DNA of 64,000 bases. Source: an uncultured Mycoplasmatota bacterium (GTDB lineage Bacteria > Bacillota_I > Bacilli_A > RF39 > UBA660). Shown piece by piece: positions 31,579 to 44,611 of the stretch. Both the position numbers and the translations under genes were made by a program. The first letter of the stretch is position 1; the number at the start of each line of letters is the position of its first letter. A model generated the notes under the pieces. The model searched no databases. It was not told where the DNA came from and saw only the letters and a list, made by a program, of their open reading frames with translations. The stretch spans positions 11,333 to 75,332 of the forward strand of contig CANOWY010000003.1 of assembly GCA_947571135.1 (NCBI GenBank), written 5' to 3'.

Positions 31579-32079
31579 ATGATTAATAAACAAGGTTTAT
31601 GGTTTGTCACATTATTTAGTTTAATATTAGTTTTAGGAATTTATTATGTTACAGTGAAAGACGATAGTAATCTACTCGCTCTACCAACTGCTACTACTTC
31701 AGGAAATGAATCTGAAGTAGTAGAAACAAATGAAAGCAGTATTTTAGTCTCTTTACGGGTACAAGATGAAGAAGAAATGCTAAAAGAAATGGAAAGTCTA
31801 CAAACTATTCTTTTAGACAACGAAGCAAGTTTACAAGAAAAAAATGATGCTTATAATTCTCTTCAAACACTAAACGCAAACAAAGGACGTGAAGAAAGTC
31901 TAGAAAAGAAAATAAAAGAAAAATTTAATTTAGAAAGTTTTATTAAAATTAAAAATGAGCAAATTAGCGTAACAATTGCTAGTAAGGAACATAATAATAC
32001 TGTAGCCAACAACATCATAAGAGCCATTCAAGAAGAATATGATACAAAAATGTTTATTGTTGTAAAATTTCAAGGCTAA
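31579..32079 (+). CDS. SpoIIIAH-like sporulation protein (membrane-anchored)
   Basis: 166 aa with an N-terminal TM and a C-terminal region resembling the SpoIIIAH/YscJ-fold domain. Lies near efp, as spoIIIA does in Bacillus. Confidence 0.35.
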   Translation: MINKQGLWFVTLFSLILVLGIYYVTVKDDSNLLALPTATTSGNESEVVETNESSILVSLRVQDEEEMLKEMESLQTILLDNEASLQEKNDAYNSLQTLNANKGREESLEKKIKEKFNLESFIKIKNEQISVTIASKEHNNTVANNIIRAIQEEYDTKMFIVVKFQG

Positions 32080-32172
32080 GCCTTATTTTAGGCATATACT
32101 CTCACTAAATCTTATCATACTTCATAAAATATTATAGATTATAAAAGTATTGAAAAGAAAGTGAGGATGCTC

Positions 32173-32385
32173 ATGAAAAAAAGTAGTATATTAACTATCC
32201 GTGAACAAGAAGTTTTTGAACTGCTCGTTTTAAATAAATCTACAAAAGAAATTGCTGAATTTTTAGGCATTAGTGAAAAAACGGTTCGTAACCATATTTC
32301 AAATGCAATGCAAAAATTAGGAGTCAAAGGACGTGCTCAAGCAGTTGTAGAACTTTTAAAACTTGGAGAAATTACGATAGAATAA
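32173..32385 (+). CDS. GerE/LuxR-family HTH transcriptional regulator (small, stand-alone)
   Basis: LTIREQEVFELLVLNKSTKEIAEFLGISEKTVRNHISNAMQKLGV is the classic LuxR_C HTH. RBS gtgagg at 32161-32166. ATG at 32173 is preferred over GTG at 32161. Confidence 0.7.
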   Translation: MKKSSILTIREQEVFELLVLNKSTKEIAEFLGISEKTVRNHISNAMQKLGVKGRAQAVVELLKLGEITIE

Positions 32386-32396
32386 TTGAAATTATA

Positions 32397-32430
32397 CTCA
32401 TCTAATAAGATGAGATTTTTTTATTTTTTT
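32397..32430 (+). terminator. Intrinsic terminator after the gerE-like gene
   Basis: ctcatct-aata-agatgag, a 7-bp stem followed by attttttttattttttt. Confidence 0.6.
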
Positions 32431-32476
32431 GGTATAAAAATGAATGTTAAAAATAAAATATATTAGGTGATTTATC

Positions 32477-33427
32477 ATGTTAAAAAAAGGGATTATTAAA
32501 AGAATAACAATTTCTTCTCTTGCACTTCTTATTCTCCTTATTACTTATTTTTTTCCCACCAAAATGGAGCAAAAAATTCCACAAACACTTAGTTATAGTG
32601 ATATCAAAACAAGTGCTATATACATTTTAAATAACACATCTTACGTTAGTCGCATTCCTATGAAAATATCTGCAAACGAAACACTTGATAGAGCAAAAGA
32701 AATCCTTACTATTTTAACGATTAAAAGCAAAGAAAGCGAATATTTACCCACTGATTTTTATGGGGTAATTCCAGTTGGAACAGTCATTCGTGATATTTCT
32801 TTAGATAATGGAATTATAAAAGTAGACTTTTCTAAAGAATTTCTAAATACAACCAAAGATTTAGAACGCAAAGTAATCGAAGCAATAGTGTTTTCTCTAA
32901 CGGAGTTAAAAGAAGTAGAAAATGTCCTTATTTTTGTAGAAGGAGAACAATTATTAGAACTTCCCTTCAGTAAAGAAAAACTTCCCCCTATTCTAAATAA
33001 AGATTTTGGAATAAATAAAGTTTATGATATTGAAAGTATTAAAAATACCACTAAAACAACTATTTATTATGGAAGTAAAACAAATGATACTTTTTACTAT
33101 ATTCCTATCACTTATATCGACAATAACCCACAAGAAAAAGTAGAAATTATTATTGAAAAGTTAAAAACTTCTCCATTATACGAATCTAATTTAGTAAGTT
33201 ATTTGCATGCTAATGCAGAAATGACCAATTATGAAATATTAGAGCAAGAAATAAAATTAAGTTTTAACAATTATTTATTAGATGATGTAACGAACGGAAA
33301 CGTTTTAGAAGAAGTAAAATATACAATTTTCCTTTCTTTACGTGATACTTATAATATAGAAAAAGTAGAATTTAATATTAAAAGTGATATAGAAAATTTG
33401 AATTTTGTTATAAATCCGCTTGAATAA
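32477..33427 (+). CDS. GerM-like lipoprotein / GerMN-domain protein
   Basis: 316 aa with an N-terminal signal/anchor and two GerMN-like repeats (spore germination/sporulation associated). Confidence 0.45.
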   Translation: MLKKGIIKRITISSLALLILLITYFFPTKMEQKIPQTLSYSDIKTSAIYILNNTSYVSRIPMKISANETLDRAKEILTILTIKSKESEYLPTDFYGVIPVGTVIRDISLDNGIIKVDFSKEFLNTTKDLERKVIEAIVFSLTELKEVENVLIFVEGEQLLELPFSKEKLPPILNKDFGINKVYDIESIKNTTKTTIYYGSKTNDTFYYIPITYIDNNPQEKVEIIIEKLKTSPLYESNLVSYLHANAEMTNYEILEQEIKLSFNNYLLDDVTNGNVLEEVKYTIFLSLRDTYNIEKVEFNIKSDIENLNFVINPLE

Positions 33428-33469: not shown

Positions 33470-33546
33470 GTCCCGGTAGCTCAGTTGGATAGAGCATACG
33501 CCTTCTAAGCGTACGGTCATGTGTTCGAATCACATCCGGGACACCA
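33470..33546 (+). tRNA. tRNA-Arg (anticodon TCT), CCA encoded
   Basis: Cloverleaf folded by hand: acceptor GTCCCGG/CCGGGAC, D-arm TAGCTCAGTTGGATAGAGCA, anticodon stem TACGC/GCGTA with loop cTTCTAa, T-arm ATGTG-TTCGAAT-CACAT, and 3' ACCA. Confidence 0.85.
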
Positions 33547-33563
33547 CTTTAAGTATTATAATT

Positions 33564-33592
33564 CCTTAGAAATAAGGGATTTTTTTATTTTT
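33564..33592 (+). terminator. Intrinsic terminator after the tRNA
   Basis: cctta-gaaa-taagg stem-loop followed by gatttttttattttt. Confidence 0.5.
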
Positions 33593-33623: not shown

Positions 33624-34562
33624 TTATACTTGTTCTCCTGATTCTATTATTTCCTCTGTTACATATATTTTACTGACTTCTTTTTTTAATCTTTTTACCA
33701 AAGTAAATTTATAAGGAATTTCTTCTATTTCTTCACGAACATTGACTAAGAATTCTTCTCTTTCCTCTTTATCTAAATTATTAAGCAAAGTAGAAAGATA
33801 AATACTTCTTAAAAAAGCAATTTGTTTTGTTCTACATAATCTTTCAGATATTAAACAATTTACTTGTTGAATAGCAAGATTAGTATTATATTCGTTTATT
33901 GTTTTCCATAACATATTTTTATCAAATACTTCTTCATAAATGATTTCTGTACTATATAATTCATAAGGAAAATGAAGTATTCTATCTTTTATATAAATTT
34001 GTTCCAATAATGTATTTAAATACGTGATTTCATAAGGAATACGTGTCACTTTTTCTTTTAATATTTTTTCACGTGGATTTTGACATGTAGAAATATTTAG
34101 AAAACGGAGACAATTTTCTAATTCTAAATCTTGAGAGATTGTATCTAAAATATAGTCTTCTTCTGAAGCATAAAATTTATTAATAGTTGATTTTTCTTGT
34201 AATAGTACTTCCCCTTCCTCATCTTTTATTGTTGAAGTAATAGGATTTTCTCTAACCAACTTTTTTAATTTTTCAGAAATTCTTAATAAAGCAAGGGATT
34301 GGTTATTTAAAACAATATAATTTTCTAATACACTATCATTGGATAATCCATAACATGTTAAAAATTTAAAATAGATGTCTTGCAAATGCGAAGCATAATC
34401 TTTTTGTAATGTTTCTAAAAGTTTTTCTTCTTTTTGGGTTAAATATTCTAAACAAGTAAATAGTGCTTCTTTTTCTGTTTTATCTTCCTCTTTTTGAATC
34501 CTACGATATAAATTATAGATTTGATGTGCATTTTCTATTAAAAATTCTATGATATTATGCAA
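33624..34562 (-). CDS. Hypothetical acidic cytoplasmic protein (312 aa, TTG start), driven by a poly-G-containing promoter
   Basis: Long ORF with no TM and no family recognised. Start codon is TTG at 34560-34562, preceded by an aggggtg RBS. A 7/8-bp hairpin plus U-run follows the stop, in the 33596-33630 area. Confidence 0.55.
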   Translation of the reverse strand: MHNIIEFLIENAHQIYNLYRRIQKEEDKTEKEALFTCLEYLTQKEEKLLETLQKDYASHLQDIYFKFLTCYGLSNDSVLENYIVLNNQSLALLRISEKLKKLVRENPITSTIKDEEGEVLLQEKSTINKFYASEEDYILDTISQDLELENCLRFLNISTCQNPREKILKEKVTRIPYEITYLNTLLEQIYIKDRILHFPYELYSTEIIYEEVFDKNMLWKTINEYNTNLAIQQVNCLISERLCRTKQIAFLRSIYLSTLLNNLDKEEREEFLVNVREEIEEIPYKFTLVKRLKKEVSKIYVTEEIIESGEQV

Positions 34563-34597
34563 ACTAAAACACCCCTGTCTTTTCTAATTTTCAAAAT

Positions 34598-34625
34598 ATT
34601 ATAACCCCCCCCCGATCGTTGTCAA
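34598..34625 (-). promoter_or_regulatory. Consensus sigma-A promoter with a G9 homopolymer in the spacer (TTGACA-acgatcGGGGGGGGGt-TATAAT); candidate phase-variable promoter
   Basis: Reverse complement of 34598-34625 reads TTGACAacgatcgggggggggtTATAAT. The spacer is 16 nt and 9 of them are G. It sits about 35 nt upstream of the TTG start of the 312-aa gene. Confidence 0.6.
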
Positions 34626-34691: not shown

Positions 34692-34730
34692 GAAAGTAGC
34701 AAATTATTCTTTAATAGTTTTGCTACTTTC
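34692..34730 (-). terminator. 12-bp perfect stem hairpin enclosing the stop codon of the 346-aa gene (terminator-like, weak U-tract)
   Basis: gaaagtagcaaa (34692-34703) pairs with tttgctactttc (34719-34730) around a 15-nt loop that contains the TAA stop. It is followed by UUUAGUU on the minus strand. Confidence 0.4.
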
Positions 34731-35744
34731 ATTTTTAAATTTCCACGGATTATCTTTTTCTCCTGTCCCTGATACTTTTAACCCAGATTTAAGAACAACA
34801 ATAGGTCGAATATAAGCGCTACTTGTAACTTCGGCATCAGATTCCATGAGTCTAATCCCTGAATATTCACTCCCATAACTATTTGAAACTTGTAGATACA
34901 AAGACACATTACGATATGTAGTGGCAGAAGTATGTTCATTTGTATAGGTACGAGTCGATAAAAAATAATTCCCTGTTTCGTTAGTAAAAACCTTATTACT
35001 GGCAAGCGTTCCTAAAGCATTTTGAAGCAAGGAAACATCTGTTTTATACGCTCTATCTCCACATCCTTGTGGCTCCAATGCCCCATCTAACCAATTTTTA
35101 TCATAAGTTCTATGATTCCAACAATTATTATTAATACCAGATAGACTATTATATATAATTAGAGACTGATTGCTATACCCTACATGTCTAGAACCATCTG
35201 TATATAAATCATTTTCATATTGTTTTGCAATATCCTGAATTGTTTGTACATAATATTTGTATCCATGTACACCAGTAAAATATATAGCAGTACTTGATAC
35301 ATATTCCGATACCATTTCGATTTTTCCATCATTTGTTTTTCTTATAACTCTCCACAAATTTAATTCGCTAGGATGAATAGTTTGATTTGTACTATAGCCT
35401 GTATAACTGTTTGGTACTGTATATGTTGTACTTTCAGGAGTCATTTCCACATAATCTCCTACTTCAACTACAGTTGTAAGTTCTACATCGTTATAATGAG
35501 GTCTAAAAACAGGGATTCTTCCCTTTAAGACATTAAATTCCTTTTTCTCTTCATAAAAAGCAAATGTTTTATAAAGTGTGATTCCACCTACTACCAGAAG
35601 TATTCCTATTATGCTTCCTACTAAGACTTTCTTTTGTTTTTGATTTTTATTAAACTTCTTAAATTCACCTGGGTTACTTTCTAATATACCCCCCCCCAGG
35701 CGTGTTCCTGAAGTTGGGAGGTTTCTTTTCTTCATTTTTTTCAT
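34704..35744 (-). CDS. Membrane-anchored surface protein of unknown function (346 aa) with a G9 tract in codons 17-19
   Basis: N-terminus MKKMKKRNLPTSGTRLGGGILESNPGEFKK (cytoplasmic), TM VLVGSIIGILLVVGGITL, then about 290 aa extracellular Tyr/Ser/Thr/Asn-rich domain with 4 Cys. Strong RBS ggaggag. C9 at 35689-35697 on the plus strand. Confidence 0.6.
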   Translation of the reverse strand: MKKMKKRNLPTSGTRLGGGILESNPGEFKKFNKNQKQKKVLVGSIIGILLVVGGITLYKTFAFYEEKKEFNVLKGRIPVFRPHYNDVELTTVVEVGDYVEMTPESTTYTVPNSYTGYSTNQTIHPSELNLWRVIRKTNDGKIEMVSEYVSSTAIYFTGVHGYKYYVQTIQDIAKQYENDLYTDGSRHVGYSNQSLIIYNSLSGINNNCWNHRTYDKNWLDGALEPQGCGDRAYKTDVSLLQNALGTLASNKVFTNETGNYFLSTRTYTNEHTSATTYRNVSLYLQVSNSYGSEYSGIRLMESDAEVTSSAYIRPIVVLKSGLKVSGTGEKDNPWKFKNESSKTIKE

Positions 35745-44225: not shown

Positions 44226-44506
44226 TTACTTCCTCCATATATCACTATATAAATCCATTATAACATTTAATTTTCTAAATAAAAGAAAAAGAACTAGTAT
44301 TTTTAACAGGTTCTTCATACTTTACTTCTTTTATTTTAACACTAACTTCATAGGAAAAACATCTATAATCTTTAAAAACATTTTTAAAGGTATTTATTGG
44401 TATGGATCCTCATATCTAGAATATTATTGTGGTGTTATCTCTAACTTACTTTCGAGTTCTTTTTGCGCATAACCGCAACTTTTACCTATTTCTTTTATAT
44501 TTTTTT

Positions 44507-44611
44507 TCAGTACTTCTTAGATTTTCTTACCCTTTTAATGTCCCCTCCTCCCAAGTTTATTCCTGAAGTTAGGAGGGCTTTCTTTTCGTCTTCCTTCTAT
44601 CTTAAATTCAT
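44507..44611 (-). pseudogene. Degenerate 5' fragment homologous to the start of the 346-aa gene (interrupted G tract, in-frame stops)
   Basis: Minus strand reads ATGAATTTAAGATAG|AAGGAAGACGAAAAGAAAGCCCTCCTAACTTCAGGAATAAACTTGGGAGGAGGGGAC... It aligns at about 80 % nucleotide identity with 35680-35740. It encodes KKALLTSGINLGGGD versus KKRNLPTSGTRLGGGI and has a TAG at codon 5. Confidence 0.45.

Follow-up and report, generated by a model that had tools for sequence, protein, structure and literature searches.

A G9 tract in the spacer of a consensus promoter and a second G9 tract in the neighbouring gene: a candidate phase-variable locus in an uncultured low-GC member of the Bacilli

Textbook examples of slipped-strand promoter switches come from spirochaetes, mycoplasmas and a small number of Gram-negative pathogens; slippage changes promoter geometry in the poly-C of opc in Neisseria meningitidis and in the TA repeats of hif in Haemophilus influenzae (PMC5084427), as well as in the poly-A of the Mycoplasma vlp genes. 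To our knowledge, far fewer have been described in commensals that are uncultured, low-GC and spore-forming. The locus described here resembles opc, hif and vlp in that a simple repeat lies in or beside core promoter elements, yet it differs from each of them: the opc repeat overlaps the -35, hif has a dinucleotide repeat that serves two divergent promoters, and the vlp repeat is poly-A.

The closest described systems are porA and tp0126. The porA promoter of N. meningitidis carries poly-G between its -35 and -10, with an optimal spacer of 17 nt (van der Ende et al. 1995, as cited in PMC7864442 and PMC5084427). Our locus shares with porA a G homopolymer of about 9-11 nt in the spacer, at which one-base slippage would grade transcription around 17 nt. 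In contrast, porA encodes a major outer-membrane porin of a Gram-negative pathogen, for which switching and expression were measured, whereas our case is built from sequence and concerns a predicted cytoplasmic protein of an uncultured low-GC spore-former. In Treponema pallidum, tp0126 likewise has poly-G between -35 and -10 and is transcribed optimally at 17 nt, and tract lengths of 7-11 nt vary within and between isolates (PMC7864442). The poly-G in the -35/-10 spacer and the 17-nt optimum are common to tp0126 and our locus; unlike it, tp0126 and the tpr genes encode outer-membrane proteins of a spirochaete and their variation was demonstrated with GFP reporters and by analysing fragment lengths, and the tracts of tprE, tprG, tprJ and tprL are located outside the spacer, upstream of the start site (PMC7864442). 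Poly-G/C tracts inside genes act as on/off switches in contingency genes of Campylobacter, Neisseria and Haemophilus, and homopolymeric tracts at 5' ends have been surveyed more generally (PMC2831843, PMC5084427). A second tract in our locus is similar to these in being a homopolymer near the 5' end of a predicted surface-protein gene that is found in both frames, and different in belonging to a new, unannotated family of uncultured Bacilli and in lying within a conserved N-terminal motif. A Gram-positive precedent for a homopolymer indel is Streptococcus pyogenes M28, where, according to the abstract of the study, a one-nucleotide intergenic indel affects the virulence-gene pair Spy1336/R28-Spy1337 (PMC7098570). 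Judged by its layout, our locus would be a promoter switch of the porA/tp0126 type, which would be no surprise to specialists in phase variation; the host group is poorly studied.

Within the window (the whole 64-kb stretch of DNA analysed, with a G+C content of 29%), the minus strand from 34625 to 34598 reads TTGACA-ACGATC-GGGGGGGGG-T-TATAAT, which places a G9 run inside a 16-nt spacer (Table 1). The two hexamers match the sigma-A consensus at 12 of 12 positions, the sole such match of a promoter scan in the window, and a regular-expression search of the whole window returned no second perfect promoter with a spacer of 15-19 nt. A perfect promoter with a 16-nt spacer is expected 0.01 times by chance, as estimated from 100 dinucleotide-preserving shuffles. 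The TTG start at 34562 follows 35 nt after the end of the -10 hexamer, a standard spacing for a promoter relative to its Shine-Dalgarno sequence and start codon, and the position of the Shine-Dalgarno sequence is taken in other alleles by a purine-rich equivalent (AGGAGG, GGGGAGG). The hairpin over the end of the preceding 346-aa gene has a minimum free energy of -18.8 kcal/mol (z = -3.35), and its stem is also found in the related contig L016; since this terminator-like structure separates the two genes, the 312-aa gene plausibly needs a promoter of its own.

Table 1. Features of the two-tract locus, in window coordinates
Feature	Position	Strand	Remark
-35 hexamer TTGACA	34620-34625	-	Promoter of the 312-aa gene
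Promoter spacer, 16 nt, ACGATC-G9-T	34604-34619	-	
5' part of the spacer, ACGATC	34614-34619	-	
G9 homopolymer in the promoter spacer	34605-34613	-	Proposed slipped-strand tract
Last base of the spacer, T	34604	-	
-10 hexamer TATAAT	34598-34603	-	
Predicted transcription start	34590-34592	-	6-8 nt past the -10, from standard sigma-A geometry
Shine-Dalgarno sequence AGGGGTG	34570-34576	-	7 nt ahead of the TTG start
312-aa gene, TTG start	33624-34562	-	Predicted cytoplasmic, all-helical; mosaic between strains
tRNA-Arg(TCT)	33470-33546	+	Convergent with the 312-aa gene; past the tRNA, downstream context is strain-dependent
Terminator-like hairpin	34693-34730	-	Overlaps the 346-aa stop codon; a U-rich stretch comes after it
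346-aa gene	34704-35744	-	Predicted surface protein: N-terminal cytoplasmic tail, one membrane helix, C-type-lectin-like ectodomain
Second G9 tract	35689-35697	-	Codons 16-19 (CTG GGG GGG GGT) of the 346-aa gene

Runs of G or C longer than 5 nt occur only twice in the window; both are G9, both are on the minus strand, and they lie 1.08 kb apart. Runs of 6, 7 or 8 nt of either base were not found in the 64 kb. Words of eight or more G number four in the window compared with 0.14 expected from shuffled sequences, none of which reached four. These readings uphold the initial annotation, which had described hexamers on the minus strand that match the sigma-A consensus exactly, a 16-nt spacer that includes G9 (verified base by base over 34625-34598) and a distance of about 35 nt from the promoter to the TTG of the 312-aa gene. 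It had also held that a 9-nt run of G or C is very unlikely to be neutral in so AT-rich a genome and that finding such tracts to be common elsewhere would count against its reading; the observed number of words is far from chance, and G tracts are not common within the 64 kb available. The G9 at 35689-35697 was absent from that annotation.

Alignment of related loci shows that the promoter has been kept as a unit. TTGACA, a run of G9-10 and TATAAT are present in alleles whose proteins are 100, 85, 72, 71 and 51% identical, and TATAAT is the same in every tract-bearing allele. The part of the spacer that is not G varies by lineage (ACGATC, ACAATC, ATGAAT, AACACC or AAAACGTT), with G9 or G10 always there. 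In the 51% allele (L018), other upstream DNA is unrelated and a clear terminator stands just upstream of the -35. Retention of both hexamers and of the run between them amid unrelated non-coding DNA points to selection for the tract. A more distant relative, L146 (about 35% identity), is syntenic, with the gene in the same fpg-tmcAL-yceD-rpmF neighbourhood, and at the same position has TTGACA-TTTAAACTATTTTATGC-TAGTAT, in which the spacer is AT-rich, 17 nt long and devoid of a G tract. This tract-less promoter at the equivalent position locates the promoter independently, and its AT-rich spacer shows that the poly-G spacer is derived, having arisen later in one sub-clade and been maintained there.

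If the hexamers were a chance or inactive site, the 312-aa gene would be transcribed by read-through from the gene upstream, and the A/U-rich stem of the intergenic hairpin could indeed leak. We regard this as highly improbable, close to negligible, given how rarely a perfect match is expected, the invariance of the hexamers in alleles that follow different upstream genes (L016, L018) and the occupation of the same promoter position in the tract-less orthologue; read-through is further opposed by the terminator ahead of the -35 in L018.

Through look-ups with the exact protein and with homologues, about 20 independent public assemblies were compared, with ENA, Logan and NCBI together supplying about 22 contigs. 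The promoter tract was G9 in 5 samples (the window, ERZ14864018, ERZ14867586, ERZ14864657 and ERZ14221447) and G10 in 14 (L001, L004, L009-L014, L017-L020, L142 and L144), with flanks that are otherwise near-identical. Spacers of 16, 17 or 18 nt were seen, the last in L017, whose non-G part is longer. A 312-aa protein of 100% identity goes with G9 in the window, L002 and L003 and with G10 in L001 and L004, and both lengths occur again within the 97%-identical allele pair P0004/P0005 (L016/L017), from which it follows that the length change has occurred more than once. Where a contig matches the window at 99.7% identity or more, its indels are nearly all located in the promoter tract or in the coding tract; apart from these, a poly-A/T run in a terminator at 33580-33587 is the one place affected repeatedly, and L143 carries two further insertions, one of poly-T and one of 6 nt. 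Three features of a porA/tp0126-type switch are found here: an uninterrupted homopolymer of at least about 7-8 nt (G9 in the window, G9-G10 in relatives), at the sequence level a location between the -35 and -10 of a candidate promoter, and a tract length that differs between close strains when low-coverage contigs are included. The initial annotation had proposed a phase-variable promoter with the architecture of known slipped-strand switches, had pointed out that one extra G would give the optimal 17 nt and had suggested comparing the locus across assemblies. That comparison produced the predicted variation, and G10 relatives do have a spacer of exactly 17 nt; the differences in tract length and the conservation between assemblies support the proposal, with porA and tp0126 as the nearest models.

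One possible explanation for these differences is error in sequencing or assembling a homopolymer whose true length is constant. Many of the contigs have low coverage (1.7-5.4x in ENA), and A-to-C substitutions that resemble systematic read errors lie no more than 8 nt from the promoter tract (around 34618-34620), giving TTGACC in L002 and TTGACACC in L008. These are the only substitutions in an otherwise identical 290-nt region, both contigs are covered 4-5x, and the changes could stem from Illumina errors linked to the homopolymer or from local hypermutation; together with the low coverage, they mean that individual length calls may in some cases be mistaken. Of about 37 true contig ends, 16 fall no more than 45 nt from a G tract, and six Logan contigs begin 9 nt past the coding tract. 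Such breaks fit mixed lengths within samples, and they also fit read dropout at poly-G, where loss of quality could end a contig. Random errors, however, would be less consistent than G10 in 14 samples from two assembly pipelines and G9 in 5, the coding tract shows a two-base change (G7), and error cannot explain why G9-10 is kept at one promoter position in diverged alleles of a genome with 29% G+C. We therefore consider a constant tract very unlikely.

The 346-aa gene, whose start is preceded by a strong GGAGGAG ribosome-binding site, contains the second tract. Four samples, all G9, keep the reading frame (the window, L002, L003 and L008), and another 4 are out of frame (G8 in L019 and L143, G7 in L020, G10 in L142). 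Lengths of G7, G8, G10 and G11 each lead to a stop after 20-23 codons, and for the out-of-frame alleles gene callers give a 246-aa fragment from Met101 without the membrane helix. Because assemblies break at the tracts and callers report truncated proteins, loci of this kind are easily mis-annotated in MAGs. A tract in the 5' part of a coding sequence with both frame states among related strains is the pattern of intragenic homopolymer phase variation, and a classical frameshift on/off switch is the best-supported reading of the coding tract. An internal promoter at this tract is unlikely, the best -35 match there being 3/6. The tract lies within a conserved N-terminal motif, NLPTSG..LGGG, that is common to paralogues of the 346-aa protein. 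In L145 (GCA_964537805.1, 2525-5382), tandem paralogues follow a gene with a cadherin-like domain; one has an interrupted tract, GGGGAGGGGG, and the next has an uninterrupted G10, which breaks a reading frame that G9 would restore. This arrangement points to a multigene family of putatively phase-variable surface proteins. The window itself holds, on the minus strand between polC and polA (44489-44590), about 100 nt that match the 5' end of the 346-aa gene at 72% identity, motif NLPTSG..LGGG included, with an interrupted G tract, TTGGGAGGAGGGG, without a start codon and without a match in Rfam; it looks like the remnant of a paralogue's 5' end. The peptidase catalytic domain of the Thomasclavelia ramosa IgA peptidase (9qa6) is not present in the 346-aa protein, nor does the protein of the window match the prepilin motif PF07963 (N_methyl), which some homologues of its ectodomain carry.

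Alternatively, the promoter tract could be a fixed feature, such as a rigid spacer or a site for a regulator, with G9 and G10 a slow polymorphism fixed by lineage. Only two lengths of the promoter tract were seen, a narrower range than at many classical contingency loci; the tract is retained in alleles down to 51% protein identity; and length partly tracks data source or strain group, in that complete promoter tracts in Logan contigs are all G10 while ENA contigs have both G9 and G10, so that a partial pipeline or strain-lineage effect is possible. Recurrence speaks against such fixation, both lengths being found with an identical 312-aa protein and again in the 97% pair. The surroundings of the run (ACGATC, ATGAAT, AACACC, AAAACGTT) are too little conserved for a defined binding site, the coding tract 1 kb away has four lengths, frameshifting ones included, and assemblies break at the tracts. 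On balance, we think a fixed feature unlikely. Three other candidates were set aside: a single run of G cannot form a G-quadruplex; switching by methylation is unlikely, as the GATC/CGATCG beside the tract is missing from other alleles; and a search of the whole window against Rfam at gathering thresholds gave tRNA-Arg only, with nothing at either tract to suggest an RNA element.

Altogether, we consider it likely that the locus holds two adjacent contingency switches, both G homopolymers, one in a promoter spacer and one within a gene. Slipped-strand mispairing at replication would add or remove one G in the promoter tract, and the change between G9 and G10 would set the -35 to -10 distance to 16, 17 or possibly 18 nt and lower or raise transcription of the 312-aa gene, with G10 as the 17-nt optimum and the G9 of the window as the weaker 16-nt state. 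At the coding tract, G9 would leave translation of the 346-aa protein on, and other lengths would turn it off by frameshift. From this arrangement we infer that the consensus site would be an active promoter, that spacer length would alter expression and that switching would be fast and reversible within a population. Since the spacers are 16-18 nt long, graded volume control is more likely than a strict on/off switch at the promoter, and because both lengths lie within this functional range, the effect on expression could be modest. Furthermore, for a protein with a predicted cytoplasmic location such as the 312-aa product, the usual rationale for phase variation, a surface antigen, a receptor or a restriction system, is not evident.

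Contigs that span both tracts raise the question of whether the two are linked. Coding G9 is accompanied by promoter G9 in 4 of 4 such contigs (the window, L002, L003 and L008), and an out-of-frame coding tract by promoter G10 in 3 of 3 (L019, L020 and L142); these samples are phylogenetically non-independent, and so strain lineage may account for the linkage. We regard it as distinctly unlikely that the tracts form a coupled switch of two genes, with the 312-aa protein as a new phase-variable function inside the cell whose expression would be reciprocal to that of the surface protein; under such coupling, the 312-aa protein might, for example, serve in defence or immunity and be subject to diversifying selection.

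The 312-aa protein has no predicted signal peptide or membrane segment, HMM searches of Pfam, NCBIfam, PADLOC and PHROGs gave no match, tblastn found none in phage genomes, and a deeper alignment profile yielded nothing significant in Pfam or among PDB sequences. A match of that profile to retron PtuB (best E-value 0.12) was treated as noise, and AlphaFold, given 6 sequences, produced a poor model (pLDDT 52). The family is tiny, with 6 clusters in 5.8 billion proteins and 21 representatives in 1.84 billion by profile search. Compared with L009, L011, L016 and L142, the gene shows blocks of 100% identity that alternate with blocks of 67-85%, and the adjoining 346-aa gene is about 100% identical between strains; a mosaic gene beside a near-invariant one suggests recombination or diversifying selection.

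Beyond this locus, a generic scan of metagenomes for TTGACA, G8 or more and TATAAT returned at least 120 unrelated contigs, with no contig of the window's species among the matches; this number is roughly what chance would give in so large a collection (by a rough estimate, about 90). Among the loci collected (L022-L141), consensus promoters with G8-G12 spacers recur on unrelated low-GC contigs, in which the run often abuts TATAAT. Several of these low-GC loci are found in different contigs with differing tract lengths (G9 and G11, G9 and G10, G8 and G9), and many precede genes for proteins with signal-peptide, lipoprotein or prepilin/pilin-like N-termini (examples are L038/L022, L106/L048/L114/L023/L141, L075/L066 and L053). 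On viral contigs the coding-tract motif was not found, and the promoter-module pattern gave 3 chance matches, all without a G tract. Given the recurrence of poly-G spacers before secreted, lipoprotein and pilin-like genes in this crude scan, a systematic survey could pay. The present locus offers a clean example in which two kinds of putative switch are adjacent, the second of them unexpected, and it draws attention to two unannotated families, one membrane-anchored and C-type-lectin-like, the other rare, mosaic and cytoplasmic, that are probably under fluctuating selection.

The surroundings of the 312-aa gene vary as well. In L009, L011 and L142, similarity to the window stops near 33642 and the downstream context is entirely different, with a gene for a metallo-beta-lactamase-fold protein (an Apyc1-like Pfam match) followed by coaD, coaE and a LysR gene. 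In the 71-72% alleles, a gene for a 130-aa protein with a PBECR2/PBECR3 nuclease domain (L016, 1555-1947; L017, 1421-1813) is inserted and separates the 311-aa gene from the GerM gene. A genome scan matched a single contig, identical to L016 and labelled 'uncultured Tenericutes bacterium', and the ERZ14221447 sequence has also been deposited as a MAG under that label. The window encodes proteins of the SpoIIIAH, GerE and GerM families at 31579-33427, which indicate a spore-former, and the label 'uncultured Tenericutes bacterium' on the related representative genome therefore looks unreliable.
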